DNA from: an uncultured Verrucomicrobiales bacterium
Lineage (GTDB): Bacteria > Verrucomicrobiota > Verrucomicrobiia > Verrucomicrobiales > DEV007
NCBI GenBank assembly: GCA_964556355.1
Contig: CAZKYJ010000001.1
Coordinates: 1 to 38,357, forward strand
Reading direction: 5' to 3'
DNA: 38,357 nucleotides
Shown here: positions 2,005-31,140 of the stretch, in pieces
Numbering within the stretch: the first letter of the stretch is position 1
Layout of the letters: each line of letters opens with the position of its first letter
Translations under genes and position numbers: made by a program
The notes under the pieces: model-generated
Databases searched by the model: none
What the model was told of the DNA's origin: nothing
Seen by the model: only the letters and a program-made list of their open reading frames with translations

Positions 2005-3462
2005 TCAGGCGACGTAGCGCCGGGCCAGCACCCGAAATCCCTCGACCTGAGCTCGTTCCCAGGCGGGGTCGCGGGCGAGTTCCTGCGCCATGATTCTGGC
2101 AACCTGGGGAGCACGTTCCATGCTCGCCCGGGCATCAAGAATCAGCGCTCGGCTCCGCCGGGTTAGAACATCTTCTACCGTGCGGGCATATTCGTGACGC
2201 ACCGCGTGAACGATCTGCGCGTCGGAGAGGTCGGTGGGGGCGGCGACCGCCCGGATGGGAAGGCTGGCTGTCGGACACTCGCGCGGTGGTAGACCGCCAA
2301 CCACCACCGCCTGATCAACCACGTCCTCCGCCATGTGCCGGTAGGTCGTCCACTTGCCGCCGGCGATGGTCACGAGTCCCGAGCCCGCCGTGACGATCGT
2401 GTGGTCGCGGGAAATGGCGGACGTTCGGCCGCCCGACCCGGGCGGGCTGACCAAGGGGCGAAGCCCGGCGAAGACCGAAAGAATGTCCCCGCGCCCCGGC
2501 ACGGCACGCAGGTAGGGTGCCGCCGTCTCCAAGATGTAGCCGATCTCCGCGTCCGTCGGGCGGGGGTCGAGTTCGGGTGCGTCGGCGGCCACGTCGGTCG
2601 TGCCCAGCAGCACGCGCCCGTGCCATGGTACCGCGAACAGAATCCGGCCGTCGGGGGTCGAGGGCACCATGATCGCCGAGCGCCCGCCGATGAACCGCTC
2701 GGGAAGCACGAGGTGAGATCCCCGGCTCACCGACAGCATGGGCTCCGCCGCCGGGTCGTCGAGCCGTCGGAGCCGGTCGGTGAAGATCCCCGTCGCGTTG
2801 ATGACCACTTTTGCCCGACACTCGAACGTGTTGCCGGATTCCCTATCCTCCGCCGCAAGCCCCGCGATCCGCCCGGCGGAATTCTTCAGCAACTTCGTGA
2901 CCCGGACGTGGTTCAGTACCGTCGCCCCGTGGTCGGCTGCGGTGAGCGCGAGGCCGACCGCCAGCCGCGCGTCGTCAAACTGCCCGTCCGCGTAGGCAAC
3001 CCCGCCGCGAAGGCCATCGGGGTTGGCGTTGGGGAGCCGCGCTAGGGTCTCATCCTTGTCCAGCAGACGCGCCGGCGTCAGCCCGAGATCCCGCGCCAAG
3101 GCATCGTAAAGTTTGAGGCCTGTAAAGTAGTAGGGTTTCTCCCACCACCGGTAGGCCGGGATGACGAACTCCAGTTCGTGGCAGACGTGGGGCGCATTGC
3201 GCAGCAGCCGCCCCCGCTCGCGAAGGGCGTCCAGCACGAGCGGCACGTCACCCTGCCGCAGGTAGCGCACGCCCCCGTGGACCAGCTTCGTGCTCCGGCT
3301 CGAGGTCGCGTTCGCGAAATCGTTCGCCTCGAGCAGCAGCGTTCGGTAGCCGCGTGCGGCGGCGTCCACCGCTGCCCCCAGCCCGGTCGCACCACCCCCG
3401 ACCACCAAGATATCGAACGGGGTCTCGGCGGCGGCTGCGAGCGCCTGGTCGCGGGTGGTCAT
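2005..3462 (-). CDS. glpD: FAD-dependent glycerol-3-phosphate dehydrogenase/oxidase
   Basis: The 485-aa ORF has the N-terminal dinucleotide fold FDILVVGGGATGLGAAVDAAARGYRTLLLE, followed by the GlpD-type signature ATSSRSTKLVHGGVRYL. Length and C-terminal helical region are as in GlpD. Confidence 0.9.
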   Translation of the reverse strand: MTTRDQALAAAAETPFDILVVGGGATGLGAAVDAAARGYRTLLLEANDFANATSSRSTKLVHGGVRYLRQGDVPLVLDALRERGRLLRNAPHVCHELEFVIPAYRWWEKPYYFTGLKLYDALARDLGLTPARLLDKDETLARLPNANPDGLRGGVAYADGQFDDARLAVGLALTAADHGATVLNHVRVTKLLKNSAGRIAGLAAEDRESGNTFECRAKVVINATGIFTDRLRRLDDPAAEPMLSVSRGSHLVLPERFIGGRSAIMVPSTPDGRILFAVPWHGRVLLGTTDVAADAPELDPRPTDAEIGYILETAAPYLRAVPGRGDILSVFAGLRPLVSPPGSGGRTSAISRDHTIVTAGSGLVTIAGGKWTTYRHMAEDVVDQAVVVGGLPPRECPTASLPIRAVAAPTDLSDAQIVHAVRHEYARTVEDVLTRRSRALILDARASMERAPQVARIMAQELARDPAWERAQVEGFRVLARRYVA

Positions 3463-3559
3463 GGCGCGACTATGGCAGCGAATCGCCCGAAGTGGAACCG
3501 CTGCCCGCCGCCCGACCGCGCCGCAACGACCACTGCAGGCTGCTCAACTTGGACAGCGA

Positions 3560-5824
3560 TCACTCCTCCACCGAGAATATGGCGCGCGCTACGCTTTCCC
3601 CATCGCTGACTTCGAGGCGGTGCTCGCCGGGAACGAGGGGCCAGGCGGAAGCGGAAAGGGGAGTCCCGTTGACCGACCACGACAATGCTTCCCCTTGTCC
3701 TCCGACCGCCAAGAGGTCGATCTTCTGCCGGTCGCGGGCCAGGTGCGGGTCGATGAGGAAGCGCGAACCGTCGCGGGGCATGAGGATCTGTAGTTCGCCT
3801 TCGCCGTCGACGGTGGCGCCGAGGTAGTTATGGCTGCTGCCGCACCAGAGTGCGTAGTCGGGGGGGAGGACGAGCCTGTCTCCGTGGTAGAAATCATCGG
3901 CGCTGCCGACGGGGCCGGTGCCTTCGAGGAACCACTCGGAGACAGGGTGCGGGCTGGCAGCGGTCGGGACCGCTCCGGTCACCGCGCAGATCGGTAGGGA
4001 GGTCAGAGATCCCGACTCCTCCGGGGCAGGGACGTCCGGGTCCCCGCCGAGAATGCCGATGACGATGTCCCGCCAGAGGGGTGCGGGGCCGGTGACGGAG
4101 GCGAGCTCGCGCATGGGGGCACCCGAGAAATTGCCGACCCATACCCCCACGCAGTGGGTGCCGGTCGCGCCGATCGTCCAGGCGTCGCGGAAGCCCGAAC
4201 TCGTGCCGGTCTTGCACGGGATCCGGCGTGATTCGAAAGCCAGCGGCGTGAACGGGCCGAACGACTTCCGCCGCGCGTCGTTGTCGCTGAGGATGTCGGC
4301 CACGATGGCGGCGGCCTCGGGCGAGGCGATGACGCGGTGGGTGGGTGTGTCCGCCGGGGTGAAGCTGGGAAGCGTCAGGGTTCCCCCGCGGGCGAAGACG
4401 CCGAAGGCGGCGGTGACGTCGAGGAGGCGGACCTCGGCGTTGCCGAGGATGAGGCCCGCACCGTAGGCATCGAGCCCCCGGGGCGTCCGGATGCCGGCGG
4501 AGTCGAGGAAGGCGAGGGCGTTGCCGGCACCGAGCCGGGAGAGTGCGACGACGGCGGGGACATTGAGCGAGTTGGCCAGGGCCTCGCGCACGCGCACCGG
4601 GCCCCAGTAGCGCTGGTCGTAGTTTTTGGGATCGTAGTCCGGGTACTCCGCGCGGATGGCGTCGGGCGTGTCGGGAAGGAGGGTGGCGGCGGTGAGCAGG
4701 TGGCGGTCGATCGCGCTCAGGTAGACAAACGGCTTCAAGATCGAGCCGGACGAGCGCGTCAGAGTCACGCCGTCGATCTCGCCGTGCCGCCCTCCCCAGC
4801 CGCCGGAGCCGACCCAGGCGCGCACCGCCCCCGAGCCGTGATCGAGGATGACGGCGGCGGCGTCGTGCGCCCCGTGACGGGCGAGCCGCCGGAGGTGCAC
4901 GGCGACCGTCGATTCCAGCCTCGACTGGAGATCGAGGTCGAGGGTGGTCTGGATGGGGCCCCCGAGCCCGCCGGCTTGCTGGCGGAGGTGGGAAACGAAA
5001 TGGGGCGCTTTCCAAACTGCGGGTTTCCGGGGCAAGACGGTGGGTGTTTGGGTGACCCATTCTGCGAGCTGTTCGTCCGTCACAAGGCCGGCGGCGGCCA
5101 GCCTGTCCAAGGAATCGCGGTAGCGGGCGGCGGCGGCCGCCGGGCGGGACCACGGGTTGTAGCGGCTCGGTGCGCGGGGCAGGCCGGCGAGGAAGATCGC
5201 TTCCGGGGGGCTGAGGTTGGCGGCGGCTTTGCCGAAGTACTGGCGTGCGGCCGCTTCGACGCCACGGAACCGGTTGCCGTAGGAGATGTGATTGAGGTAG
5301 CGCGAGAGGATGGCGTCCTTCGACCACTCGCGCTCCAGGCGGAGGGCGGCGAGGGACTCGCCCAGCTTTGCCAAGAAGCTCCGGCGCCGGGGCGGCGCGG
5401 CGTTCTTGACGAGCTGTTGGGTGATGGTCGAGGCGCCGGAGACGATCTCGCCGTGGCGGAAGTTGGCGATCAGGGCACTGCCGATCGCAACGCCATCGAT
5501 CCCGCTGTGCTCCCAGAAGCGCTGGTCTTCCAGGCCGATGGTCGCGGTGATGAGCCACGGGGCTACCGAGTCCAAGCCGACGGGAAACTGGAGTCGTGCC
5601 CCCTCTCCCGGGAGCTCGGCGATGCGATCGCCGTGGCGGTCGAGCAGGATCGGTGTGCCGACGATACCGGCCTGCAGGGAAGCCGGCAGGCGAGCCGTCC
5701 GCACCGCGCTCTCGAAGGCGGCCGCGAGGAGGGCAAAACCGGCGGCGAGCGCGATGGACGCGCGCTTCCTCCGGATGAATCTACGGGACGGCGAGGATCT
5801 GGACATCGGCGGTGGTCGCGGCAA
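3560..5824 (-). CDS. pbpC: Penicillin-binding protein 1C (bifunctional GT51 glycosyltransferase / transpeptidase)
   Basis: GT51 motifs are present: EDQRFWEHSGID, GASTITQQLVKN and RLEREWSKDAILSRYLN. Transpeptidase motifs are SxxK (GSILKPF), SxN (NSLNVP) and KTGT (CKTGTSSG). The C-terminal beta-domain typical of PBP1C is present (LQILMPRDGSRFLIDP...). The start may be the internal Met at 5806. The CDS overlaps the end of the upstream A2M gene. Confidence 0.9.
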   Translation of the reverse strand: MPRPPPMSRSSPSRRFIRRKRASIALAAGFALLAAAFESAVRTARLPASLQAGIVGTPILLDRHGDRIAELPGEGARLQFPVGLDSVAPWLITATIGLEDQRFWEHSGIDGVAIGSALIANFRHGEIVSGASTITQQLVKNAAPPRRRSFLAKLGESLAALRLEREWSKDAILSRYLNHISYGNRFRGVEAAARQYFGKAAANLSPPEAIFLAGLPRAPSRYNPWSRPAAAAARYRDSLDRLAAAGLVTDEQLAEWVTQTPTVLPRKPAVWKAPHFVSHLRQQAGGLGGPIQTTLDLDLQSRLESTVAVHLRRLARHGAHDAAAVILDHGSGAVRAWVGSGGWGGRHGEIDGVTLTRSSGSILKPFVYLSAIDRHLLTAATLLPDTPDAIRAEYPDYDPKNYDQRYWGPVRVREALANSLNVPAVVALSRLGAGNALAFLDSAGIRTPRGLDAYGAGLILGNAEVRLLDVTAAFGVFARGGTLTLPSFTPADTPTHRVIASPEAAAIVADILSDNDARRKSFGPFTPLAFESRRIPCKTGTSSGFRDAWTIGATGTHCVGVWVGNFSGAPMRELASVTGPAPLWRDIVIGILGGDPDVPAPEESGSLTSLPICAVTGAVPTAASPHPVSEWFLEGTGPVGSADDFYHGDRLVLPPDYALWCGSSHNYLGATVDGEGELQILMPRDGSRFLIDPHLARDRQKIDLLAVGGQGEALSWSVNGTPLSASAWPLVPGEHRLEVSDGESVARAIFSVEE

Positions 5825-8800
5825 GGCGCTGGTCGTAGAGGAGGCTCGCCCGGGCGGCGGGCCAGGAAAACGTGCCCCCGGCCACGACTTGGGTGAGCAC
5901 GCTGTAGGTGCTCTCCCCGGCGGGGAGGGAGGCGAAGGTCAGCCGGATGCGCTGCGCGCCGTAGTCGGCGTGGCCGAGCTTGGCATCGGTCGGTTTGGCC
6001 GGGATCGCGAACGCTTTCTGCACCGCGGGCAGGTCGGGGTTGAGCGTCTCCAGCGCGGCGGGAAGCTGTTCCTCGAGAACCACGAAATCGCGCGGCCGGT
6101 CGGAGGTGATCCGGTAGTTGAGCATCACGTAGTCGCCGACCTTAAAGGGCGTGCCCGCCGAGCCATCGCGCCCCGGTTCGTTGTGCGAGTAGACCTCTCT
6201 CGTCATCGCGAGATCGGCACTGCCGACCGGTTCCGCGATCGCCGCGCGGTAGGTGGCACGAAGGAGCCAGTAGGCGGGGACGTTGGTTCGGAGCCCGGAA
6301 GAGAAATCGGCGTTCAGGTTGGCAGCCGGGTGCCGGAGCCAGCCCCGGGTGACGCCGTTGGGCGAGGCCACGTAGTCGTCGCGTCCGACCCCGGCGTCGG
6401 CGAGCCTCGCGGGATCCTCGAGCTGGAGGTAGGTGTCCGCCGCCAGGAGGCGCCAGATATTCTCTTGGGCGGTGAGCGGGCGGTCGTCGATGAGGAGGGC
6501 TTCGGCCAAGCGGTCGGAGCGGAGGCTTTCGGAGGCGCCGACTTCCTGCGCGTAGAGAGCCCCGAGCGTGAGCAGCCGGATGGCAGCGGCGCGTTGGGGG
6601 GTGCCGAGGGTCACGGGATCGAGCCCGTCCGGCAGCGGTGCACCTTCGATCTCTTGGGTGAGGGTTGCCCACTCGGCGTCGGCGAGCACCGGTCCGCGGG
6701 GGAGTTCCTCGCCGGCGTCGAGCGCATCAACCTGGGGGATCGCGAGCGCCAAAAAACAACGTCCCTCCAGCCCGAGACTTTCGTCACGGCGGGCGAAGAG
6801 CGCGCGGGCGGCGACGTGGAGGTCGCCATTGCTGGGCGAGTAGTAGTAGCGACCCGGCCGCCGTCCCGTGGCGGTGGCGAGCAGGGCGGCCGCCCGGACG
6901 AACGGAATCGCCTGGGGCAGATCCCCCGAGCGCGCGCCGATGGAGACGGGATCGTCTCGCCAGTAGGCGAGCTTGGTGAGGAGACGCTCGGACCACACTG
7001 ACGTGCGAACCGGCGGGCCGGTGTTTCCATCCTCGTCATATCCCATGTCGTCGTCCAAGGGCTCACCACTTTTCGCCAAACTGATCGCCCATGAGACCAA
7101 CGCGGTGGCCGGATCGTCCGGCTCGTCGCCCCCGGGGAACTGGGGGAGCCAACCGGCGGCTCCGGCCGGGATGATCGATTCTTCGACGAGGTCGGCGGCG
7201 ACCGCGGCATCCCTGGTCGCCTGGGCGAGTACCCATGAGGGAAGCCCATCGGGGGAACTGTCCCCCGTCGATGCCCACGGGAGGTAGGCGGCCAGGTGGG
7301 GTACCAAATACGGGGCGAGTGCCGACGAGGCGAGGTCCGCCATCGCGATCCCCTCGCCCGAGCCGGGGGAAAAGGTCGCGATCTGGGCGAGCCAGCGGGT
7401 GCCGGAAACCATGATATCGACCGAGCCGTCCGGTTGTGCGCTCCAGCGGGCGGGCGCGCTGGAGACGTCGTCCCAGGTCGCAGGGGGGGCGAGTTCGCCG
7501 GTGGCGATCTCGGTGCGCTCGGTGAAGCGGGGCAAGACGTCGAGTGTGACGGCGGCGCCATCCGAGAGGGCTGCTCCATCGGAGGCGATGGCTTGGAAGA
7601 CCAGCCGTAGCGTGGTGCCGACGCCCGCCTTACCCACCTTGATCCGTGCGGTTGCGACCTCCGATTCTCCCTGAGCCAGCGCCAGTGCCTGCGAACCGCC
7701 ATCGACTAGAGTGGCCGCGCCTTCGACCTCGACGGAGAAACGAACCGGCAAGTTCGGGGCCGCCTCCTGGGTGATCTGGCAGCGCAGGATGAGGTCGTCT
7801 CCCTCCCGGACGAACTGGGGGAGGAATGGTTCCACGCGCAGGGGATTGCTCACCGGCACCGACGTTTCGCCGGCGCCGATTTGGGTCGATGTCGTGTGGG
7901 CGAGCGCGGCGACCCGATAGCTGGTCAGGGAGTCGGGCGCCTCGAACGAGAACGGCGCACGGCCTTGGGCGTCGGTCTGAACCGAGGTGAGCCAGAGCGG
8001 TCGGGGGTTCTCGTTCTCCCGGATGATGACGGTGGGGATCAGGGTTTTCTCCCGCCCCGAGCCGAGGATATAGCCCTTTTCGAACTGCGAGAGCACATCC
8101 GCCTCGGCGGCGGTCCACTGCTTGCCCAAAGCCGCGTTGGTGATGACCCGGTGGTAGCGCTCGGGGTAGAACGGCTTCGTCGTGTCCGGCAGTTCCCAGT
8201 TCCCCAACGAGAGCACCGCATCGTCGATGGCGAAGACGACAACTTCCGCTCCGGCGACCGGCTGCCCTTCCGCCTCCACCAAGACATGCCCGGTCACCGG
8301 CTCGCGCACCCGGGATTGCGGGGAGTCGAGCACCGGCGTGACGGCGAGCTCGATGGCGGGATCCCGCACCGCGAGCGGGACGACGGCGAAGCGTTCGGCG
8401 GGCGCGCCGCCCGCGCCCGGAGCTCCCATGAGGTGGAGGCGGAGGAAGGCGTTCGGGAAGTAGTCTTTGCGCACCGGCACCTCGATCCGGCCCGAGGTGC
8501 CCGGCAGCTGAACGAGCGGGAGGGTTTCCAAGAGATCATCGGTCTCCACCGTGACGCGGATGGCACCGGCGAACGGGGTGCCCACCGCGATCACCGCCGT
8601 ATCGCCGACCGCCACCCGGTCGTCGACGAGCTCGGCCTCGAAGGAAAAGTCGTTGAGCACCACCATATCCGAGCGCTGGAGCACGCCGGGGAAGGCGGCG
8701 CTGACCGGTTGGGCGTGCGGGCTCTCGACAGGTACCGCCACGACCACGTAGTCGCCGGGCGCGCCGCTGGGAAGGACGCCTTCGAAGGGCAGTTCCAGCC

Positions 8801-11771
8801 GCTCTTTCCATACGCTTTCAAACTCCGGCGCATTCCGGTAGCGCACGACGTTCTCGGAAAGGCGCTCCTGAACCGTGTTGATCGTGCGGCGCACCACTTC
8901 GACGTCCGCCTCCGCCCCGGGTGCACCCACTTTGTCCTCGGCGGTGATGGTGGTCAGGCGCACGGGCAGGCCGGTCTCACCGACCGCGCGAGTCTTCGCC
9001 TCGAGGGCGAGCGCTCTCTCGGGGAACTGCACCCGCTGCTGGGCGGCGGCGCGCCGGGTCTGACCGGCGACCGTGGTGAGGTCGACCGTCCAAAAGACCT
9101 GCGCCCGGTGCGAGCGCCCGAGGTTCGGAAACGGGCATTCACTCCGCAGCGTCACCGTGCCGTCTTCTCCGACGACCGCTTCCCCCCGGTCGGGGTGGGA
9201 GGACGGGATGGCGAGCCCCTGGGCCAAGTTTTGTGCCAGGCGTCCGCCGGAGAGGATCTTCATGCTCGCCAGCACACCCTCCATGCCCTGCTTGCTCGCC
9301 GGCTCGGAATAGCGGTCGTCAAAGGCGAACTTTCCCCAGTCGATCCACGATCCGCCGAAGTCGCCGATCTCGAACGGGTCGTCCGCGGGCGTGTGGTGCC
9401 GGAATCCGCTCTCTTCCGAATGGTATCCATCGCCTCCACCGAGTGAATAGTCGGGGACGAAGGCGGGCAGCCAGTCCTGCATGACCCATTCGGCGGTGTA
9501 CTTCAGTGTCGCATCGCGGTTGGCGCTGCCGTGAAAGAAAAACGAAGTCACCGTGGCTTCCGCCACCGTGCCGGTGGTCGTCGCGGCTGCCAGATCCATC
9601 GAAAACGTCGGGGGACGGAACTCGGCCACGTCCACCGTGAGGGTATGCAACCAACCCCCTTCGCCGTCGGTCAGCGCGAACGAGATCCGGCTCGGAACAA
9701 GATTGGCCGGGATCGGCCAGACGAGGCTTCCGCTCCCGGAGGCGTCGATGCCAATCGGCTGCTCTTCCGCGTATTCTTCCCCGACCTCGATCGAGATTCC
9801 AAATTCAGTTCCTTCCGCAGGGATGGTGAGCTGATCGCCGATACGTCTGCGCACAACAGCATAAATATGGACATCTTCGCCGGGTTCGTAGAGATCGCCG
9901 TTGGTCATGAGGAGTGCATCGTAGCCGTCCCTCTCTCCGATCCCTCCCCAGCGGATGCTGGAAGCGGGGTAGTCGCCCTCTTGGAGACACCGTCCCAGCG
10001 CATTCCCCGCGAGGAGAAAGGCCGGTTCTTCACCCTCCCGCCGCAGGACGCCGAACCGCGCCAGCCCCTCGTTATCGGTGGTGGCCTCGTCGAGGAGGCG
10101 GCCATCCTCCGCGTAGGCCTGCACCGAAACATCCGCCGCCGCCGTGCCGTCGGCGAGCTGGGAAAGTCGGACGCCTGCTCCCGATTCCTCCCCGGTCGCA
10201 ATGAAGTTCATGAACCAGTCCGAGAGCGAGATGAGCGAGCGGTTCCCGCAAGGGCGACCATCGACCCCCCGTCCGACCACCTCGAGTAGATAGAGCCCGG
10301 CCACCTGACCGCCCGCGTCAGGCTTCCATCGGACGCGCCGGGTCGACTCGTCGTTGCCGGGGGCTGCCGGGAACGAATCGCTGGCCACCGCCCGGAGGCC
10401 GAGCGCCGGGATGAGCTCGTCGGTCGCCGCGAACTGTAGGGTGCCGTCGCGCGGGTCGAGCAGGTGGCCGCCCGCATCGCTCAACGCCGGCTCCGCAAAC
10501 TCCCGGAGACGGACTTTGACCTCCGACACCGACCCGGCGGGCACCTCGGCCAGCGTCCAGGTCAGGGCGCCGGTCCGGCTGTGCGAAACGGCGACGTCGA
10601 CCCCGGAGGCAAACGGTTGGGCGATGAAATCGGCCGGCATGATGACGCTGGCCCGGCGCTCCGGAATGCTCAGCGGCCATGACTGCGGTCCCGTGGTCGC
10701 GATCCCTCCGAGCGACCGGATCCCGTCGTCGACGTTGAGGATGTATTCGGTTCCCTCTTCGAACTCTCCCTCCAGGACGGCGATGCTGTGGTCGGCACGC
10801 ACCGTCAGCCCGCCGACCGGGGGGGTGATCGTAAAACTCGCCGCGTCGAGTGCCCGGGGGTCGAGGCGGGCATTAAAGAACGCGCGGGCGAAGATCCCGG
10901 TTCGGGGTTGGTTGTAGGCACGGGCGAAGACGTTCTCGAACGGGGCACAGTAGCCCGCCGGATAGACGCGCAGGAAGTCCGTATCGTAGTCGCCGGTGGC
11001 GGCTCCCAGGCGCTCGACGACCAGCCAGTAGTGGCGTCCGGTCGGTAGGGGCGCCACCGGTTGTACAAAGACGAGACCCTGCGGTTTGCCGGTCTGCCAT
11101 TCGTCCAAACAGGCGACGACCGGATGGCGCTCGCGCGATTCGGTATCGACGAAGGCGACGCGGCCGGCAATCTCCGAGGGAAACACGTCGCGGCTGAACT
11201 GCAGCCGGGCGCGGGGCTGAACGGGAAGGTGCTGGTCGATCGTCAGTACCTGCGTGTCTCGCCGGTCGGCGTTGAAGAGTTTCACCCCGACGATCCCAAA
11301 ATCCTCGGAGGCGAACTCGGCGCCCCAACCGTCCGGGTTCACGAGATCGCCCGCCCGGTCGACGAGCCCGTCCCGCAGGGTCAGGCGGTAGGCGATCTCT
11401 GGGAAGGCGTGCTCGAAGTAGATCATCCCGCGCCGGGGCGAGATCCAGCGGAACTTGAACCCCGGATCCGGTTCCAGGACCACCGGGGGAACAGCGGCCG
11501 CCGCTTCCTCGTCCCAGCGGTCGTCCGAGCCGACCATAGCGGGATCGACCATGTCGGTGGGGAAGGTGATGAACCGGTCTTCCCACCACGGGCCGAGCGT
11601 CCCGCGGGTCTGCGAGAGCTTGATGTCCGATCCCTCGGACGAAAGTGGGGCGTGGGGGGTTGGATCGACGGATCCGCCACCGGAGTCGGCGGTGTCGGGT
11701 GCCCGTTCGCAGCCCGCGGGAGCGAGTGCGATGAGCAGGGCCAGCAGGTGGAGAACGGAGGGCGATTTCAT
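5781..11771 (-). CDS. Bacterial alpha-2-macroglobulin family lipoprotein (1996 aa), apparently without a thioester
   Basis: A lipoprotein signal with lipobox is present (LLALLIALAPAGC). A2M/MG-domain signatures include AEFRPPTF, PRPLWLTSVQTDAQGRAPFSFEAPDSLTSYRVAALA, NPLRVEPFLPQFVREGDDLIL and the C-terminal DFVVLEEQLPAALETLNP. Its position immediately upstream of pbpC matches yfhM-pbpC. None of its 8 Cys residues lies in a CxEQ context. Confidence 0.9.
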   Translation of the reverse strand: MKSPSVLHLLALLIALAPAGCERAPDTADSGGGSVDPTPHAPLSSEGSDIKLSQTRGTLGPWWEDRFITFPTDMVDPAMVGSDDRWDEEAAAAVPPVVLEPDPGFKFRWISPRRGMIYFEHAFPEIAYRLTLRDGLVDRAGDLVNPDGWGAEFASEDFGIVGVKLFNADRRDTQVLTIDQHLPVQPRARLQFSRDVFPSEIAGRVAFVDTESRERHPVVACLDEWQTGKPQGLVFVQPVAPLPTGRHYWLVVERLGAATGDYDTDFLRVYPAGYCAPFENVFARAYNQPRTGIFARAFFNARLDPRALDAASFTITPPVGGLTVRADHSIAVLEGEFEEGTEYILNVDDGIRSLGGIATTGPQSWPLSIPERRASVIMPADFIAQPFASGVDVAVSHSRTGALTWTLAEVPAGSVSEVKVRLREFAEPALSDAGGHLLDPRDGTLQFAATDELIPALGLRAVASDSFPAAPGNDESTRRVRWKPDAGGQVAGLYLLEVVGRGVDGRPCGNRSLISLSDWFMNFIATGEESGAGVRLSQLADGTAAADVSVQAYAEDGRLLDEATTDNEGLARFGVLRREGEEPAFLLAGNALGRCLQEGDYPASSIRWGGIGERDGYDALLMTNGDLYEPGEDVHIYAVVRRRIGDQLTIPAEGTEFGISIEVGEEYAEEQPIGIDASGSGSLVWPIPANLVPSRISFALTDGEGGWLHTLTVDVAEFRPPTFSMDLAAATTTGTVAEATVTSFFFHGSANRDATLKYTAEWVMQDWLPAFVPDYSLGGGDGYHSEESGFRHHTPADDPFEIGDFGGSWIDWGKFAFDDRYSEPASKQGMEGVLASMKILSGGRLAQNLAQGLAIPSSHPDRGEAVVGEDGTVTLRSECPFPNLGRSHRAQVFWTVDLTTVAGQTRRAAAQQRVQFPERALALEAKTRAVGETGLPVRLTTITAEDKVGAPGAEADVEVVRRTINTVQERLSENVVRYRNAPEFESVWKERLELPFEGVLPSGAPGDYVVVAVPVESPHAQPVSAAFPGVLQRSDMVVLNDFSFEAELVDDRVAVGDTAVIAVGTPFAGAIRVTVETDDLLETLPLVQLPGTSGRIEVPVRKDYFPNAFLRLHLMGAPGAGGAPAERFAVVPLAVRDPAIELAVTPVLDSPQSRVREPVTGHVLVEAEGQPVAGAEVVVFAIDDAVLSLGNWELPDTTKPFYPERYHRVITNAALGKQWTAAEADVLSQFEKGYILGSGREKTLIPTVIIRENENPRPLWLTSVQTDAQGRAPFSFEAPDSLTSYRVAALAHTTSTQIGAGETSVPVSNPLRVEPFLPQFVREGDDLILRCQITQEAAPNLPVRFSVEVEGAATLVDGGSQALALAQGESEVATARIKVGKAGVGTTLRLVFQAIASDGAALSDGAAVTLDVLPRFTERTEIATGELAPPATWDDVSSAPARWSAQPDGSVDIMVSGTRWLAQIATFSPGSGEGIAMADLASSALAPYLVPHLAAYLPWASTGDSSPDGLPSWVLAQATRDAAVAADLVEESIIPAGAAGWLPQFPGGDEPDDPATALVSWAISLAKSGEPLDDDMGYDEDGNTGPPVRTSVWSERLLTKLAYWRDDPVSIGARSGDLPQAIPFVRAAALLATATGRRPGRYYYSPSNGDLHVAARALFARRDESLGLEGRCFLALAIPQVDALDAGEELPRGPVLADAEWATLTQEIEGAPLPDGLDPVTLGTPQRAAAIRLLTLGALYAQEVGASESLRSDRLAEALLIDDRPLTAQENIWRLLAADTYLQLEDPARLADAGVGRDDYVASPNGVTRGWLRHPAANLNADFSSGLRTNVPAYWLLRATYRAAIAEPVGSADLAMTREVYSHNEPGRDGSAGTPFKVGDYVMLNYRITSDRPRDFVVLEEQLPAALETLNPDLPAVQKAFAIPAKPTDAKLGHADYGAQRIRLTFASLPAGESTYSVLTQVVAGGTFSWPAARASLLYDQRLAATTADVQILAVP

Positions 11772-11792
11772 GGGCGGCTCGGCTAAATCTGG

Positions 11793-14700
11793 TCATCCCC
11801 GGTCGCGGAGGCGTCGCGCCGTCTGCTCATCCGTCTCGGCCTCGTTCGTCCGGCCGAGCTTCCGGAGGAATTTGGCGCGAAGCTCGTGGTAGTAGGCGTT
11901 CTGCACGGCGGAGATGGCCTGACTGATGGCATTGACCGCGGCCTCGGAATTCCCCAGCCCGAACTCTGCCTGCGCCCGGATCTCAAAATGCTCGATCCAG
12001 TTCGGGTTCAGCCCGAACAGCGTCTGCGAGATCTCCAGCGCCTCGGAGAATCTCTCCTGCCCCAGCAGGTGGGTTCCGCGCCAGTAATTCGCCGCGTAGT
12101 CGCTCGGGGCGATGGCGAGCGCCGCCTCAGCGTCGGCGAGACCGAAGTTCCACTGGATGAAGTAGTACCAATTCCGGGAGCGATCGACGAGCGTGGCGAC
12201 CGAGTTCGGGGTGATTTGCGCCACCTTGTCGAGCGTGAGCAACTCCATCAACACGTTCCAATCGCGGTTCACCCATTCTTCGAAGCCGGCATCGGCATAG
12301 CTGAACGCGAGGAGGCTCACGACCCGGTTGCCCTCGGGGGCGGGCATGTTCGCCCGCTGGCGGGCGATCGCCCGGAAGAACTCGACGACCGTCGATTTTC
12401 CGTTCATGATTTTTCCTGCCTTTTCGATGTCGGCGAGGGCTTGCTCCGGTCGTCCGACCACGAGGAGGACGCGGGCGCGCTCCATCCACGGCTCGGGCGA
12501 AGATTTGGCGGATTCTTCGGCCAGTGCCGCCGTCGCGGATTCCAGCTCCCCACGGTGGGCGAGCAGCCGCTGGAGCGGGGGGCCGAGATCGATGACTTCG
12601 TCGAGATCCGGGTCGGCATCCCGCGCCTCTTGGTAGTCCTTTTCTGCGAGGTCGAGTTTCAGCAACTCCATGCGTGCCCGCGCCCGGCGGATTTTGGCCA
12701 CGGCGTTGTCTTCCCAGGACCAGCTGTTATTGACCAGTCGCTCCAGCTCCGCCCATTTTTCGTTCTCCAAATAGTGGCCGGAGACGCGTTGCAGGAGGCC
12801 GCGTCGCGTCGTGTCATCGAGATCCGGGGTGAGCAGGTATTTCGTCCACGAGGCAATGGCCTCTTCAGCGTTTCCCTTCTTCCATTGGATCTGCGCCTCC
12901 AGGTTGAGCAGCTCGTTCCTCGGAAGCCCGCGCCGCTTCCACTGCGTGAAATAGTCGGCGATCGCGGCCGCGTGCTCCTCCGCGCTGCGCGGGCTGCTCT
13001 CGTCGTGCACCGACGCGATCACGAGGGCGCGGAAGGCCTCGGCGTTCTCCGGATCCAGCGCGAGGATTCGCCGGGCGATCTCCGCCACCGCCAGCGCCGG
13101 GAACGTGTCCGGCTGCCGCCCTGCCGGACGCTCTTCCCACACGCTCGTCGCGAGTGCGGTCAGGGCTGGGGCAAGCTGTTCCTCCAGGTCGTTGAGTTCG
13201 GCATCGCGTGTCACGATGGATTCGACCGCCTCCTCGACCTCCTTCTCCCGCTGCGCATTCCAGACCAACGCGCCCACCACCGCCGCGACCGCCGCCCCGG
13301 CCACCACCGACCGCGTCTTGCCCCGCGTCCCTGCCGTGCGGATCGATGTCCTGACAAACTCGCGCTCCAGCTCATCGAGATCATCCGCCTCGGCCGCCAG
13401 GGAGCGTGCATCTTTCAACCGTTCGCCGCGGTCCCAGAGGAAGGCCGCCGCCCGCCCCCGTTCCTGCCAATCGGTCGCGCTCGTGGCCGCCGCCGCCCGC
13501 AGCGTGAGGAATGCGCGGTTCGCCTCGATCGCTTCGGCCAGCGCCGTCCACTTCCGCAGTAGCGCTTCGTGGGTCACGTAAACGACCCCGCCGTTCCCGT
13601 CGCCCGCCGTCCTGGTCAAGAGCCGACCGTCCACCAGCGCATCGACCAGCTTGCCGAGCCCGTCCTTGTCCGCCTGGAATAACGCCAGCGGGGCCGACCG
13701 CCGCAGCGCTGGGCTTTCCTTGCCCCGCCCCAGCGTCACCAGCGCCCGCGCCAGCTGTGCCAGCGGGTCGCGCACCGACGGGTTCGCCTCCACGAACATT
13801 TGGTAGATCGCCTCCGCACGCTCTTTGACCGCGCCCTCCAGACCGCCCAGCGCGTCGAGCTGCGCGTGCGTCATCACCTGCACCCCATCGACGGACTCGC
13901 GGCGGGCGTAGAGTTCCTGCAGGACGAAGCTCAACAAGGGCAACCCGTCAGGAGAGGAGCGCGCGTCCCGCAGGAGCCGCGCTTCCAGCCGGTCGCCCGT
14001 CGCCGGATCCTCTTCAAAATAGACCCCCGCCGCCCGTGCCGGCATCCGGATCATCAGGTCGAGATCCGTCTCGGTTGGCGGGAGTAGCGCCACCTGCCCG
14101 CCCTGCGCCAGCTCGGCCAGCTCCGGGAGGTCCTCGGTGAAAGTCGCGAGCTGGTCGCTGCGGATCGTCGCCACGATCCAGATGACCCCCGAGCGCGCCA
14201 GCAGCGCGAGCACGGCGGCGAACGCTTTGCGCTGATCGTGCGGGAACCGGCGGTCGTCCGAGAAAACCTGCTCCAGCTGGTCGACCAGCAGCACCAGCTT
14301 CGTCGGCGGCGGCTGCGGGAGCGCCTCGTGTTCCGCCACCTCTTGCGCCGCCATCCCCAAGGCCTCCGCCATCGGCGCGATGGCACCTTCCGGGTTTTCC
14401 AACCACCGTTTGACCAATCTGTCCGCGTCCAGGCCCAGCCGCCGCAGCCCCGGTAAGGCCCCCTCCGCCGTCAGGCTCGCGGCCAGCGCCGGCACCAGGT
14501 CGTCGCCCGTGGCTCCCGGCGTCATCGTCGCCACCCGCCAGCATCCCACCCCCTCGATCGCGCAGCTGGTGTGCGTCATCATCGGGATCACCCCCGCCCG
14601 CAGCAGCGACGACTTTCCGCTCCCACTGGCGCCGTGCACCAGCGTGAACGTCCGCCCCGCATCCGCCTGCTGGCGCATCGCGGTCAGCACGTCCTCGATC

Positions 14701-15452
14701 GCCTGCGAACGCCCGAAAAAAATGTCCGCATCGGCGAAGTCGTAGGCCGCCAGCCCCCGGAACGGGTTCTCGCCATGGTAGGTCACCGGCAGCGCCCCCG
14801 CCGGCGCCGCCACCCCCGCGCTCTCGATATGCTGGACGATCAGCTTGCGCAGCGGGCGCTCGAGCTTCGTCTCAAACTGCCCCAGCGCGCTGTATTCGTT
14901 GATCGCCGCCTTGAAGGTCGAGTCCTCATCGTAGAACCACTTTTGGATAAATGCATTGAGCGCCGCCAGTTGCTCCGCGCGCCGGGCCGCCTCCGCCGGG
15001 TCGTTCACCGGCATCGGTACCGCCTGCGTCCGCCGGTAGACCATGATGTCAGGCGCCTTCCGCGCCAGGTACGACTCCACGGCAGTCTCGATCTCGTAAG
15101 CCGTGCCCGACGGGTAGGGCTCGCCGTTCCGCCGCTTGAACCGCCGGCTCAGCATCGTCCCCAGCCGCGCCCACAGGATGCACACCACGATATCGAACTC
15201 CGCCGTCGGCGGGATATTCTCGGGATCCGCGAAGCTCGCCGTCGCCCGCATCGGCTCGTGCTCCCAAAAGAACGCATCCAGCTTCGCCCGCCCCGCATAC
15301 TCGAGCCGCAATCGTTCGATGATCCGCTCCGCGCAGATCCTCTCCATCGCCACGTCCCCCGGCGACGAAACAAATATGCGAATTTTCACCATGATATGCC
15401 CCGCCAGCCTACCCGGATCGCCCTGCGCCTGTAAACCGAAAACGCCGAACAA
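11793..15452 (-). CDS. Membrane-spanning STAND (nSTAND-type) P-loop NTPase with a TIR-like/DUF4062-like N-terminal domain and a C-terminal TPR array
   Basis: The ORF is 1219 aa, and the likelier start is the Met at 15392 (MVKIRIFVSSPGDVAMER...). The N-terminal ~170 aa show IFVSSPGDVxxER ... DIVVCILWARLGT ... PSGTAYEIETA ... DIMVYRR, a TIR-like/DUF4062-like pattern. This is followed by NPFRGLAAYDFADADIFFGR, Walker A LVHGASGSGKSSLLRAGVIP, Walker B KLVLLVDQLEQVF and the nSTAND hallmark VTHEALLRKWTAL. Next come a single hydrophobic helix SVVAGAAVAAVVGALVW and about 490 aa of helical TPR-like repeats. Confidence 0.8.
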   Translation of the reverse strand: MFGVFGLQAQGDPGRLAGHIMVKIRIFVSSPGDVAMERICAERIIERLRLEYAGRAKLDAFFWEHEPMRATASFADPENIPPTAEFDIVVCILWARLGTMLSRRFKRRNGEPYPSGTAYEIETAVESYLARKAPDIMVYRRTQAVPMPVNDPAEAARRAEQLAALNAFIQKWFYDEDSTFKAAINEYSALGQFETKLERPLRKLIVQHIESAGVAAPAGALPVTYHGENPFRGLAAYDFADADIFFGRSQAIEDVLTAMRQQADAGRTFTLVHGASGSGKSSLLRAGVIPMMTHTSCAIEGVGCWRVATMTPGATGDDLVPALAASLTAEGALPGLRRLGLDADRLVKRWLENPEGAIAPMAEALGMAAQEVAEHEALPQPPPTKLVLLVDQLEQVFSDDRRFPHDQRKAFAAVLALLARSGVIWIVATIRSDQLATFTEDLPELAELAQGGQVALLPPTETDLDLMIRMPARAAGVYFEEDPATGDRLEARLLRDARSSPDGLPLLSFVLQELYARRESVDGVQVMTHAQLDALGGLEGAVKERAEAIYQMFVEANPSVRDPLAQLARALVTLGRGKESPALRRSAPLALFQADKDGLGKLVDALVDGRLLTRTAGDGNGGVVYVTHEALLRKWTALAEAIEANRAFLTLRAAAATSATDWQERGRAAAFLWDRGERLKDARSLAAEADDLDELEREFVRTSIRTAGTRGKTRSVVAGAAVAAVVGALVWNAQREKEVEEAVESIVTRDAELNDLEEQLAPALTALATSVWEERPAGRQPDTFPALAVAEIARRILALDPENAEAFRALVIASVHDESSPRSAEEHAAAIADYFTQWKRRGLPRNELLNLEAQIQWKKGNAEEAIASWTKYLLTPDLDDTTRRGLLQRVSGHYLENEKWAELERLVNNSWSWEDNAVAKIRRARARMELLKLDLAEKDYQEARDADPDLDEVIDLGPPLQRLLAHRGELESATAALAEESAKSSPEPWMERARVLLVVGRPEQALADIEKAGKIMNGKSTVVEFFRAIARQRANMPAPEGNRVVSLLAFSYADAGFEEWVNRDWNVLMELLTLDKVAQITPNSVATLVDRSRNWYYFIQWNFGLADAEAALAIAPSDYAANYWRGTHLLGQERFSEALEISQTLFGLNPNWIEHFEIRAQAEFGLGNSEAAVNAISQAISAVQNAYYHELRAKFLRKLGRTNEAETDEQTARRLRDRG
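13260..13310 (-). other. Predicted single transmembrane helix of the STAND protein (SVVAGAAVAAVVGALVW)
   Basis: A 17-residue uncharged stretch is flanked by RTAGTRGKTR on the N-side and NAQREKEVEE on the C-side. By the positive-inside rule this places the NTPase in the cytoplasm and the TPR array outside. Confidence 0.6.
14607..14633 (-). other. Walker A / P-loop coding segment (GASGSGKSS) of the STAND NTPase
   Basis: The reverse complement reads ggc gcc agt ggg agc gga aag tcg tcg. Confidence 0.9.
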
Positions 15453-15630
15453 TCTCGCGTCCCCGCGGCGTGCCGGGGCCGAGCACGCAGGGGTCGCCGT
15501 TCTCGGCCCGATGGTAACAGGTGAACCGGGGGAGGGAAGGGATCATCCCTCGCGGCAACCCCGGGAGCGGCGGCCCGGCAGGCGTTCGCGAGTTGCGGGA
15601 GCGGTGCCGTCGATCCGCCCGTTCGAGCAG

Positions 15631-16476
15631 CTACGGATCGCCCGTTTCTTCGCATCCCATCACCATTGGGCGCGGGAGCGAGTCCAGCCCCATGACCCGC
15701 GCCAGGACGAGGGCGGTGAAGTAGCAAATACCCGCCGACCAGAGGACGTCGCTAGCGAAGTGCCCGCCCTGAGCGATCCGGGTGATCCCCAGAGCGATCC
15801 CGAGCGTGAGCGCGAGCGCCAGCGCCCACCATGCCCAGGGTTTGCCCAATGCGCGTCCGATGAAAAATAGGGCGAATAGGCAAAACCCCATCGACGCATG
15901 CCCGCTGGGGAACGACTTGCCGGGACTGGCCGGATCAAAGTGCCAAACCCGTTCGAAGCGCTCTTTCCCCCCGAAATCGGCGACGTCGCGGGGCCGGGGG
16001 CGTCCCCAGTGATCTTTGAATACGGCGTTGACGAGTAGGCCGGGGGCAATCGCGACTACGAGGACGAAGTAGGCCGCAATCTTTCGCCAGCGCCTCGCGG
16101 CTACCCACCACGGGCTCGCCAGCAGCACGCCGACGCCTGCCCAGGCGAGCGCTGCAGCCAGGAGTGTGCCGCGGTGGTAGACGAAGGAAAAGAACGGGGT
16201 GTCTGCCCAAGTCCCGCCGGCGACACCCGCACCCGGCAGGTAGAACCAACCCGAGAGCGCAAGATCCGCCCCCGTCATCGCGAAGACGATGGTCCCGATC
16301 GCTAGCAGGCACGCGGGAACCTTCACGAGCCAAAAGGCCCCTCCCCAGCGCCCCCGCGCGCCCCCGTCCACGTGCTGGTTCGCCTCGTCCGTCATCAATC
16401 GATCGAGCCAAAGAAGGAGCTGGCAGGCCGTCTTTGCAATCCGAGACCGAGAGCGGAGAGGCAGGCGCGATACCAC
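15631..16476 (-). CDS. PAP2-family membrane phosphatase (lipid/undecaprenyl-pyrophosphate phosphatase-like)
   Basis: The three acid-phosphatase motifs are present: KDHWGRPRPRD, FPSGHAS and RIAQGGHFASDVLWS. The protein has multiple TM segments. The start could be the internal Met at about 16395. Confidence 0.85.
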   Translation of the reverse strand: MVSRLPLRSRSRIAKTACQLLLWLDRLMTDEANQHVDGGARGRWGGAFWLVKVPACLLAIGTIVFAMTGADLALSGWFYLPGAGVAGGTWADTPFFSFVYHRGTLLAAALAWAGVGVLLASPWWVAARRWRKIAAYFVLVVAIAPGLLVNAVFKDHWGRPRPRDVADFGGKERFERVWHFDPASPGKSFPSGHASMGFCLFALFFIGRALGKPWAWWALALALTLGIALGITRIAQGGHFASDVLWSAGICYFTALVLARVMGLDSLPRPMVMGCEETGDP

Positions 16477-16752
16477 TCCGGTCGAAGGGTCCGAGCGAAT
16501 GGGGGAGGAGACCGCGATGACTCACCGCGCATGAGAACGATCGATTCGGGTATCCGGCAACCGAGGCTTGCGCGGTGCGCCGATTCCCGCCCCACCGGAA
16601 GCCTCACGGGGCTGGGCGGCGCTTGGGTACAACGCGATGTGGGCGCGTTGCCGAGGGTTGCAGCCGCGCTGATCGGACGCAGATTCTTCTCCTCGGGCCC
16701 GCCGAGTCCCCAGCCATCGATCGTGGGCCGGCGCGACGCGCGCACCGCGGAT

Positions 16753-17280
16753 ATGGATCGCATCGTGATAGTTGGAAATTCGGGATCGGGGAAGACTTCG
16801 CTGGCCAGGCAGCTTTCGCAGGTCGTGTCGCTAGCGCATCTCGATCTGGACGAGATTGCATGGAAAGAGGCGGATCCGCCGGTTCGGGAGAGCTTGGCCG
16901 AGAGCGCTGCGCAGATCGATGCTTTCACCGCCCGGAACCCACGGTGGATCGTTGAAGGGTGCTATGCATCGCTCGTCGAGTACGCCGCGAGGATGGCGAC
17001 GCACATGGTTTTCCTGAACCTCGGGGTGGAGGAATGCGTGCGGAACTGCCGATCTCGGCCGTGGGAACCCGGCAAGTATCCCAGCAAAGAGGCACAGGAT
17101 GGGAACCTCGAGATGCTTGTCGACTGGGTGAGGTCGTACGATTCCAGGGATGATGAGTTTTCGCTGAAGGATCACCGGAGGGTTTTCGCTAGCTTCAGCG
17201 GCGCGAAGGTCGAGATCACCACGAACGGCGAAACAGATCGCTACCTCGCGTCCTGCGCGGATCGTCTACCGCCCGGCTAG
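16753..17280 (+). CDS. Small P-loop kinase-like ATPase (adenylate-kinase / topology-modulation FlaR-like)
   Basis: MDRIVIVGNSGSGKTSLARQL is a Walker A at the extreme N-terminus, and the protein is about 175 aa. The longer track ORF from 16372 adds an Arg/Gly-rich non-protein-like leader, so I prefer the ATG at 16753. Confidence 0.7.
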   Translation: MDRIVIVGNSGSGKTSLARQLSQVVSLAHLDLDEIAWKEADPPVRESLAESAAQIDAFTARNPRWIVEGCYASLVEYAARMATHMVFLNLGVEECVRNCRSRPWEPGKYPSKEAQDGNLEMLVDWVRSYDSRDDEFSLKDHRRVFASFSGAKVEITTNGETDRYLASCADRLPPG

Positions 17281-17317
17281 CAGACACAAACTAGGGGTCA
17301 GGGTGCAAATTCTGACA
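17271..17317. repeat. Left inverted repeat (REP-like) flanking the RAYT gene
   Basis: The sequence is gcccggctagcagacacaaactaGGGGTCAGGGTGCAAattctgaca. The 15-nt core 17294..17308 is a perfect reverse complement of 18436..18450, and the extended arm matches with a few mismatches or indels. Confidence 0.75.
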
Positions 17318-17336
17318 GCTGCGCGCCCGTGCACGG

Positions 17337-18426: not shown

Positions 18427-18480
18427 TGTCAAGAATTGCACCCTGACCCCAGTTTAATCGTGGCCGCTAGTCCGTGGGGC
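18427..18480. repeat. Right inverted repeat (REP-like) flanking the RAYT gene
   Basis: The sequence is tgtcaagaaTTGCACCCTGACCCCagtttaatcgtggccgctagtccgtggggc. Its reverse complement aligns to 17271..17317, including the aaact, cac, ctagc and cgg blocks. Confidence 0.75.
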
Positions 18481-21190: not shown

Positions 21191-21592
21191 GGAAAACTAC
21201 GGTAGGGGTCGGCCGGGTCCCGTGCAAGATTTCAGAATGCGCCGCCGAGCGCCGGGTCATCCCGACTTCGGGGTCGTCGAAACCTACATCGCCCTCCACG
21301 GGCGGAGCTACGTCAGTGATGCGGCCTCGTGTCGCCGGGGGTGGGGAGAACCCTTCGCGGCCGGTGCCCGGGTGGAGGTTTTCTATGGCGCTTTCCCGCA
21401 GCGATCGGGCCGGATTCCCGAGGTCGCTCTCCTGGCACTCGAGGGGCGGTTCGCGGGTGCATCGCGGTAGGGAGAGCCCGGGGAAGCCCGGGGTAGGCGC
21501 TGGGCGGATGTCCCCGTGCTGCCTCCTTGCTGGGGATTGACGGTGGTGCCTAGGCCGCTAGCTTCTCCTGCGGCAACCGAGACGAAAGCGCC

Positions 21593-27706: not shown

Positions 27707-28027
27707 ACCGTCGGTGATCTGACGCCGCCGATGCTCGCCTCGGCCGAGGCCAGTTTCTCGCGCACGAATATCACCGTGCGCTTTACCGAACCGGTGCGCG
27801 TCGCCTCGTTGCGCTCGTCGGATTTCTCCCTGGATGGAGGGGTCGACATCTTGAGGTTGAGCTTCGGCGACGACCACCACGAGGTCGTCTTGGATACGAC
27901 GTTCCATCCGGACGACACGCCGCTCACCCTGACCGTGAACGGGGCGCGTGACACCTCGCCCAACGCGAACCCCATCGCCCCCGATTCGACCATCGCGGTG
28001 GCCGAGGCAACCATCCCCGCGCTCCCC

Positions 28028-28657: not shown

Positions 28658-28686
28658 CTCCCGGAGGCGGCGCCGCCGGTTCCCGC

Positions 28687-31093: not shown

Positions 31094-31140
31094 ATGCTGT
31101 CGGCCAACAATTATTTTCAAGATCTTGTTAAGATTTTGAT
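31094..31140. promoter_or_regulatory. AT-rich intergenic patch with a small palindrome, a possible promoter/operator for the PEP-CTERM gene
   Basis: The sequence aatgctgtcggccaacaattattttcaagatcttgttaagattttgattgg stands out against the GC-rich background. It contains aagatctt (self-complementary) and atctt-gtt-aagat. Confidence 0.3.

Follow-up and report, generated by a model that had tools for sequence, protein, structure and literature searches.

A conserved STAND-A2M-pbpC module of Verrucomicrobiota with a predicted periplasmic TPR sensor and a candidate NADase effector

We describe here a three-gene operon, STAND-A2M-pbpC, on contig CAZKYJ010000001.1 (GenBank assembly GCA_964556355.1) of an uncultured Verrucomicrobiales bacterium; the window, by which we mean the whole stretch of 38,357 nucleotides that was analysed, has a G+C content of about 68%. 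An earlier note, made from the sequence alone, had described an envelope cluster of four co-directional minus-strand genes for PAP2, a STAND protein, the alpha-2-macroglobulin A2M, a periplasmic protease trap, and the peptidoglycan synthase PBP1C, and the open reading frame (ORF) and domain calls bear out all four genes and their common strand (Table 1). The STAND stop codon (TGA, 11793-11795) and the A2M start codon (ATG 11771) enclose a spacer (11772-11792) of exactly 21 nucleotides which, as the note had said of hairpins, is free of terminator-like and also of promoter-like matches, none of which fell in or near the gene junctions in a scan of positions 3000-17500; counts in that scan equalled those in shuffled sequence, and it is informative solely on the absence of an obvious terminator. 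The overlap of A2M with pbpC, likewise claimed before, amounts to 26 nucleotides between the A2M stop codon (5781-5783) and the probable pbpC start at ATG 5806, or to 44 nucleotides if translation begins at TTG 5824.

For the STAND gene, ATG 15392 (MVKIRIFVSSPGDV...) is the most probable start codon, giving a protein of 1199 amino acids, because the N-terminal motif common to all orthologues begins there. With this start the gap between PAP2 and STAND is 238 nucleotides, and tblastn searches with the window proteins found PAP2 in none of the related genome and metagenome loci. We rejected PAP2 as a member of the cluster on these two grounds: the co-directional order of the proposed four-gene cluster stands, the membership of PAP2 does not. 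PAP2 is a chance neighbour outside the module, and the locus is a three-gene operon.

Table 1. Coordinates of the genes and domains of the module, of its PAP2 neighbour and of one free-TPR triad (positions in the window except for L058)
Feature	Position	Strand	Description
PBP1C gene pbpC	longest ORF 3560-5824, probable gene 3560..5806	minus	Transgly, Transpeptidase and BiPBP_C domains
A2M gene	5781-11771	minus	1996 amino acids; Pfam bMG3, A2M_BRD, A2M, bMG10; lipobox LIALAPAG|C
Eroded thioester site	7326..7352	minus	GIAMADLAS where ECAM has GCLEQTAS and free-TPR-linked A2Ms have YPHGCFEQ
STAND gene	longest ORF 11793-15452 (TTG 15452), probable gene 11793..15392	minus	nSTAND1 and C-terminal TPRs
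Predicted periplasmic TPR domain	11796..13250	minus	residues ~715-1199, all-alpha; Pfam TPR families
Predicted transmembrane helix	13260..13316	minus	residues 693-711 (TRSVVAGAAVAAVVGALVW); hydropathy scan
nSTAND1 NTPase module	13449..14765	minus	Walker A GASGSGKS 254-261, Walker B VLLVDQ 367-372
N-terminal candidate effector domain	14808..15392	minus	residues 1 to ~195, divergent DUF4062/NIR TIR-like fold
PAP2 gene	15631-16476	minus	PAP2 domain E=1.2e-22
Free-TPR triad example L058	TPR 8430-9809, A2M 9806-15379, pbpC 15379-17574		

The adjacency of the three genes recurs well beyond the window. A homologue search with the STAND protein returned a tight set of full-length relatives (about 1200 amino acids, 39-61% identity) and a looser set (32-38% identity, 83-100% query coverage); more than 1000 further proteins match the first 57-60% of the query alone, that is the N-terminal domain and the NTPase, beyond which their C-termini are of the WD40, another TPR, the FGE or the RHS type. 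In the neighbourhoods of five relatives (P0011, with 40% STAND identity; P0004, 57%; P0077, 32%; P0027, 34%; P0017, 39%) the order is STAND, A2M, PBP1C on one strand throughout, with junctions of -4 to +17 nucleotides. A single genome for each GTDB species was scanned with two N-domain peptide motifs, by which fused genes whose motifs diverge, P0077 for one, are overlooked; the scan yielded 46 loci, and tblastn with the window proteins identified five of these with a matching STAND C-terminal region (a Verrucomicrobia metagenome-assembled genome, a Luteolibacter sp., two Akkermansiaceae and one Chthoniobacterales), all with A2M and PBP1C downstream. Another 27 loci, each with at least 8 kb of downstream DNA, encode paralogues that share the N-domain and NTPase and differ in the C-terminus, and not one of them carries A2M or PBP1C.

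With metagenomic loci included, the triad is found in 10/10 independent loci with a matching C-domain (the window together with L001/L010, L003, L004, L006, L008, L009, L011, L013 and L055) versus 0/27 paralogue loci; Fisher's exact test, with no correction for phylogeny, gives p=5e-6 for the five genome loci against 27 and p=3e-9 for the ten. Across these loci, the window among them, one strand carries all three genes, and the gaps run from -4 to +21 nucleotides, with -4 to +16 at the STAND-A2M junctions of the nine loci other than the window; STAND identity ranges over 32-61%, and the flanking genes are wholly different in each locus examined. Since the triad recurs with differing flanks and PAP2 is in no other locus, we take STAND-A2M-PbpC as the unit; its adjacency has evidently been kept by selection, and we hold it very likely that the three proteins form one functional module. 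The neighbourhood survey that the earlier note had proposed thus finds the adjacency to recur, and its extension to unrelated genomes is borne out only in part, the named instances all coming from a single phylum.

That restriction, together with the prospect that the STAND-linked set descends from one fusion event, is what phylogenetic inertia would lead one to expect, with an inherited gene order free of functional coupling, or a merely coincidental 21-nucleotide spacing. However, the triad has been kept while all of its flanks changed and STAND identity fell as low as 32%, neighbouring genes still overlap at start and stop or lie no more than 21 nucleotides apart, the association tracks the C-domain type exactly, and the same domain as a free protein adjoins A2M in dozens more loci. 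We therefore regard inertia as a highly improbable explanation and continue with a functional STAND-A2M-PbpC module. The most divergent of the fused loci, L004, encodes a PBP1C without any relative above 55% identity, the nearest named ones being from Chthoniobacterales and Udaeobacter, so that L004 may lie inside or outside Verrucomicrobiota. A second nSTAND1-WD40 paralogue (1668 amino acids, 2540-7546) and a Ser/Thr kinase gene (1-18) lie a few kb upstream in the same locus. In L012 (10001-17600, an Akkermansiaceae metagenome-assembled genome) the STAND ORF is interrupted, A2M is matched over its last ~600 residues alone and pbpC is intact, a state that could reflect decay of the module or an assembly problem.

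The STAND protein presents, in order, a DUF4062-like domain, nSTAND1, a transmembrane helix and TPRs, which is the three-part architecture of STAND proteins. Its NTPase matches Pfam nSTAND1 (PF20703) at 278 bits (E=1.9e-82, cutoff 27.1; residues 230-668 of the TTG-start ORF), nSTAND1 being a clade that has been named among predicted conflict systems (Kaur et al. 2021, PMC8195603). Both Walker motifs are intact and show no variation in an alignment of 21 orthologues, and G254, S256, G257, G259, K260, S261, S262, D371, Q372 and E374 are invariant in 60 sequences. The full-length AlphaFold2 (AF2) model has a predicted local distance difference test score (pLDDT) of 89.7, with low confidence confined to a linker (198-203) and the membrane region (698-718); a Foldseek search with it was swamped by TPR proteins and gave no information on the NTPase.

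The predicted membrane helix is flanked by basic residues on its N-terminal side (4 K/R) and acidic ones on its C-terminal side (5 D/E). At the threshold used in the hydropathy scan it is detected in 20/21 orthologues, and an equivalent helix, at residues ~680-720, is found in 67/72 paralogues with the same N-domain and NTPase (among P0018-P0100), where it precedes WD40, TPR, FGE or RHS-type C-terminal regions. On the strength of these counts the whole subfamily appears to consist of single-pass membrane STANDs with an extracytoplasmic repeat domain.

The N-terminal domain is the candidate effector. Its AF2 model (~200 residues, pLDDT 91) has five beta-alpha units in a flavodoxin/TIR-like topology. 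We assign it to DUF4062 because N-domains of paralogues, 41-48% identical to that of the window, pass the Pfam cutoff (P0090 with 26.8 bits, P0080 with 27.3 bits) and because its motifs are conserved, the structure searches being weak; the sub-threshold alignment of the window domain itself spans model positions 1-79 of 82, and phmmer against the PDB gave chance matches only. Among 60 family members E17, R18, W43, E44, P47, W74, R76, G78, T97 and E100 are invariant, and E100, which lies in an SGTxFExE motif on helix 96-111, is also invariant in the 21 orthologues. DUF4062, renamed NIR, has been shown experimentally to be a TIR-like NADase, with its catalytic Glu at E97 in KpSwz, E98 in Vulcan, E103 in VstA and E108 in PsAvs2, and it is the N-terminal effector of an Avs2 STAND-TPR protein (bioRxiv 10.64898/2026.05.01.722283, 10.64898/2026.09.04.749371). 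E100 fits these catalytic residues by its position in the chain. Because the paralogues match DUF4062, DUF4062/NIR is an NADase and E100 is invariant, we infer that the N-domain is a DUF4062/NIR TIR-like effector of the NADase type with E100 as the candidate catalytic residue.

At the other end of the protein, the C-terminal 480 residues are modelled by AF2 as an all-helical solenoid (pLDDT >90) that matches TPR superhelices in Foldseek. Pfam and NCBIfam recognise in it generic TPR families alone (PrsT, MamA and SctY fragments, below cutoffs), with no match to LpoA or CpoB. A library-wide phmmer search with the C-domain alone returned eight representatives below 1e-30, all of them fused forms; P0244 (497 amino acids, 45% identical to the C-domain), which we had considered as a close free relative, was rejected as a contig-end fragment of a fused protein.

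More distant free relatives came from metagenomes. A profile of the STAND-linked A2Ms gave 69 metagenomic loci with A2Ms 26-34% identical to that of the window; a single peptide pattern, specific to this clade of A2Ms, underlay the scan, and the near-constant presence of a TPR gene therefore holds for that clade and not for all bacterial A2Ms. Only L055 has a full STAND gene upstream. In most of the others tblastn matches the STAND C-domain, and no other part of STAND, directly upstream of A2M, and four loci without such a match still have a similar ORF of 436-468 amino acids in the same place. The free proteins are typically ~430-530 amino acids long, with an N-terminal signal peptide and then the TPR region, and many of their genes overlap the A2M start by 4 nucleotides. 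Those members of this group that have a name belong to the verrucomicrobiotal genus Candidatus Udaeobacter. Over its whole length the C-domain of the window protein is collinear with the TPR protein of L058 (28-448 versus 44-447, 24% identity, E=3e-16 in BLASTP), and 23 of the 29 positions that are at least 85% conserved in fused domains recur unchanged in at least 68% of the free proteins, W818, W849, R903, R972, A985, D988, D1055, R1071, Q1080 and D1087 among them. The membrane helix of STAND sits at the position of the signal peptide in these homologues.

In this clade the free TPR protein thus seems to make up a third component of A2M-PbpC operons, one that has gone undescribed. In one lineage, as we read the alignments, it became the ectodomain of a transmembrane STAND, the membrane helix replacing the signal peptide: since the TPR domain is homologous to the free TPR protein upstream of A2M-PbpC, the STAND protein would have captured the periplasmic partner of A2M as its sensor. 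The same homology, to proteins with signal peptides, is the strongest evidence for a periplasmic TPR array, and together with the charged flanks of the helix it upholds the location that the earlier note had predicted for the repeats. Free TPR-A2M-PbpC loci occur on dozens of soil metagenome contigs (L056-L123). Linkage to PbpC is frequent in this group and not universal, because L067, L075/L076 and L120, with free TPR and A2M, have no PBP1C match in the 5-10 kb downstream.

Alternatively, the TPR domain might be an independent periplasmic sensor of some other envelope cue, for instance a phage or predator protein or peptidoglycan fragments, with A2M not its ligand and A2M-PbpC merely co-expressed as a protective and repair arm. 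The varied C-domains of the 67/72 paralogues with a membrane helix, none of which lies near A2M among those checked, would suit a family that senses varied extracytoplasmic cues, and periplasm-facing STAND sensors have been proposed for proteins diversified by diversity-generating retroelements (DGRs) (bioRxiv 10.1101/2023.09.22.558884). Yet this particular C-domain, free or fused, is found only beside A2M, and its conserved positions are identical in the two forms, which argues for a conserved endogenous partner rather than a variable foreign ligand. We consider an unrelated cue quite unlikely as the input, and favour a TPR ectodomain that reads A2M and/or PBP1C.

The A2M of the window begins with a lipoprotein signal peptide (MKSPSVLHLLALLIALAPAGC, including the lipobox). 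A single-sequence phmmer search against the PDB found no match; a profile of nine A2M sequences found E. coli YfhM/ECAM (E=1.6e-45) and Salmonella A2M (E ~1e-45). In the profile alignment GCLEQTAS of YfhM faces IAMADLAS of the window protein, no C.EQ occurs anywhere in its 1996 amino acids, and the CxEQ thioester motif is missing from 10/10 STAND-linked A2Ms. All 25 complete free-TPR-linked A2Ms keep YPHGC[FL][ED]Q, with Cys and Gln present. Two free-TPR-linked A2Ms (L064 787-6408, L119 9980-15505) have CFDQ in place of CFEQ, Cys and Gln being kept. The free-TPR-linked A2Ms form one clade in a neighbour-joining tree, and a single branch separates the STAND-linked set.

Judged by its motif and linkage, the window A2M fits neither published class, being linked to pbpC like type I and thioester-less like the type II protein MagD. 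Loss of the thioester agrees with an A2M that has turned from a covalent trap into a bait. Structural work documents well that proteases make bacterial A2Ms change their conformation (PMC3328433, PMC4498604), and such a change would be a natural trigger. The partner PBP1C exceeds the cutoff of the NCBIfam PBP1C equivalog TIGR02073 (517.3 versus 494.2), and its glycosyltransferase (EDQRFWEHSG, GASTITQQ) and transpeptidase (SILK, SLN, KTG) motifs are intact.

These intact motifs also suit a different arrangement, in which the nucleotide state of the NTPase would control the periplasmic TPR domain from the inside out as an activator or scaffold of PBP1C and/or A2M, and the N-domain would be regulatory and not a killing effector, much as LpoA and CpoB serve other class A PBPs. 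Class A PBPs often need dedicated partners (PBP1A-LpoA, PBP1B-LpoB/CpoB), and to our knowledge no PBP1C activator has been described. Furthermore, the primary job of the TPR domain might well be periplasmic, because the ancestral free TPR protein serves A2M-PbpC without a STAND module, and the window is not a defence island. Against this, characterised STAND proteins, a DUF4062-STAND-TPR protein among them, use the C-terminal repeats as input and the N-terminal domain as output, the N-domain keeps its candidate catalytic Glu and ~15 invariant residues in 60 sequences, as expected of an enzyme, the C-domain has no LpoA or CpoB family match, and the loss of the thioester in every STAND-linked A2M would be left unexplained. 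We judge such inside-out control to be unlikely, and take the signal to run from the TPR domain inwards.

The translationally coupled and conserved operon, the TPR partner shared with free-TPR loci and the logic of STAND proteins, with C-terminal repeats as input and the N-terminal domain as output, lead us to propose that the TPR ectodomain monitors A2M and/or PBP1C. STAND would be a single-pass protein with a DUF4062/NIR-type candidate NADase and the nSTAND1 NTPase in the cytoplasm and the TPR domain in the periplasm, where the latter would contact A2M and/or PBP1C. A protease entering the periplasm would cut the bait region of A2M and change its conformation, and this change would release or reshape the TPR domain. 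The signal might then pass the membrane helix and permit NTP-dependent oligomerisation of STAND, which would gather the NADase domains for NAD+ hydrolysis; growth arrest, cell death or a signal derived from ADP-ribose could follow while PBP1C repairs the wall. In this scheme we infer that the TPR domain touches A2M, which way the signal runs, that the N-domain acts as an NADase and what sets the response off in the living cell. A three-gene operon with a captured TPR sensor and an A2M-monitoring STAND protein is, as a whole, our best explanation, with about an even chance of being right; the specific mechanism, in which the state of A2M sets off an NADase alarm, is more tentative and falls somewhat short of even.

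The thioester-less A2M leads us to speculate further that the module might work as a trans-membrane guard and decoy, in which A2M would be a cleavable bait and not a trap, the TPR domain would read it and the STAND NADase would fire. Protease attack, whether by a host, a predator, a competitor or a phage lysis machinery, would then end in NAD+ depletion and in dormancy or altruistic death. We put this bolder version forward as a possible but rather doubtful one.

Several observations weigh against our best explanation. The window N-domain scores 12.0 bits (E=0.26) against Pfam DUF4062 (PF13271), below the cutoff of 24.7, and Foldseek against the PDB gives it weak matches solely (TM-scores 0.3-0.43), to the plant NLR TIR of RPP1 (7dfv_B), a nucleoside 2'-deoxyribosyltransferase (8qc0) and flavodoxin-like reductases. 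PADLOC-DB has no match to Avs or any other known defence system for the STAND protein; its weak matches are of the N-domain to the candidate PDC-S60 (E=1e-6) and, at the level of the P-loop, to mad3 and mad8. The window is not recognisable as a defence island, its neighbouring genes being metabolic or unknown, and all taxonomically named triads are from Verrucomicrobiota. Because a single branch parts the two sets of A2Ms, fusion and thioester loss may each be a single event, which makes the effective n for their correlation one; we have rejected that correlation as independent evidence, the A2M tree being compatible with one event. The TPR-A2M link is itself a putative one, and we know of no experimental precedent for STAND signalling across a membrane.

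The other genes that flank the operon in the window are PAP2 and a GlpD-like oxidoreductase. The best NCBIfam match of PAP2 is the lipid A 4'-phosphatase LpxF, below cutoff (96 versus 400 bits), and its real start is probably further downstream than listed, because the 5' end of the longest ORF overlaps a plus-strand ORF for an AAA_18/zeta-toxin-like kinase (16372-17280). Upstream of the module, at a distance of ~2 kb, lies an ORF with an IS200-like Y1 transposase domain (17337-18398, minus strand; Y1_Tnp E=1.5e-8). Further away are the genes of two large proteins predicted to be secreted or at the cell surface (23511-25889, minus strand, and 26750-31093, plus strand), one with G8 and CEMIP beta-helix domains, the other of 1447 amino acids with Ig-like and cadherin-like domains, and the region 18467-35414 holds several more ORFs of 900-1200 amino acids without a Pfam match.

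The module is new in combination. The earlier note knew of no STAND-A2M-PbpC system, and we too found none: our full-text searches turned up no paper that links STAND, nSTAND1 or DUF4062 to A2M or pbpC, none that reports a TPR gene as the third member of A2M-pbpC operons, and none on a DUF4062-STAND protein that spans the membrane. It is nonetheless built from known parts, since nSTAND1 is already a named clade (PMC8195603) and periplasm-facing STAND sensors have already been suggested for DGR targets. With the sensor predicted outside the cytoplasmic membrane in this family and in ~90% of close paralogues, NLR-like surveillance would reach the periplasm, which raises the question of how a STAND protein might be activated through a single membrane helix, STAND/NLR-type receptors being known for sensing in the cytosol.

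For 20 years the A2M-PbpC pairs of bacteria have been viewed as a passive module that traps and repairs, on scant genetic evidence. Our analysis adds a third component that is strictly linked to them, in many Verrucomicrobiota as a free TPR protein and in others as a fusion of TPR, STAND and candidate NADase, with loss of NAD+ as the predicted read-out. The thioester is lost exactly where STAND is fused, which suggests that A2M has changed from an inhibitor into a signalling bait. If the proposal holds, a bait of the A2M/TEP family and an NLR-TIR receptor, pillars of innate immunity in metazoans and plants, would stand in one prokaryotic operon, which would either converge strikingly on eukaryotic immunity or have preceded it as a forerunner, and the module would provide the first transmembrane STAND signalling mechanism.

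Among known systems, the Avs2-type protein PsAvs2 (bioRxiv 10.64898/2026.09.04.749371) resembles the window STAND in its N-terminal DUF4062-type domain with a conserved Glu, of which the window protein has a candidate counterpart, its STAND NTPase and its C-terminal TPR-type repeats, and by analogy both would be expected to respond to a ligand with oligomerisation and NAD+ hydrolysis. Unlike PsAvs2, however, the window protein has an NTPase of the nSTAND1 clade and matches no PADLOC Avs model, carries a membrane helix between NTPase and repeats with a predicted periplasmic sensor, and is operonic with A2M-pbpC instead of being a stand-alone gene in a defence island; its sensor, moreover, derives from a housekeeping-like periplasmic partner.

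With type I A2Ms (ECAM/YfhM-PbpC and Salmonella A2M) the window protein shares the lipoprotein nature, the MG, bait-region, A2M and MG10 domains and a gene upstream of and overlapping pbpC, whereas it lacks the CxEQ thioester that defines type I, is ~350 amino acids longer and has a third gene, STAND-TPR, strictly linked upstream. The type II A2M of P. aeruginosa, MagD of magABCDEF (PMC3735191, PMC5764988), is likewise thioester-less and works in an inner-membrane-associated multi-protein complex from one operon, which we count as a further likeness. Its partners differ, though: the window has STAND-TPR and PBP1C in place of MagA, B, C, E and F and no six-gene mag operon, and the linkage to pbpC present here is a hallmark of type I and not of type II.

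The free TPR-A2M-PbpC triad of Candidatus Udaeobacter and its relatives has the same gene order, TPR domain and tight coupling; in it, in contrast to the window, the TPR protein is free and secreted by a signal peptide, has neither NTPase nor NADase, and adjoins an A2M that keeps its thioester. Finally, the guard and decoy NLRs and the TEPs of plants and animals offer a possible parallel in the pairing of an NLR-like STAND protein that has a TIR-like NADase with a bait of the A2M/TEP/complement family. The parallel is one of concept and not of membership, and in bacteria the pairing would have to work across the inner membrane.

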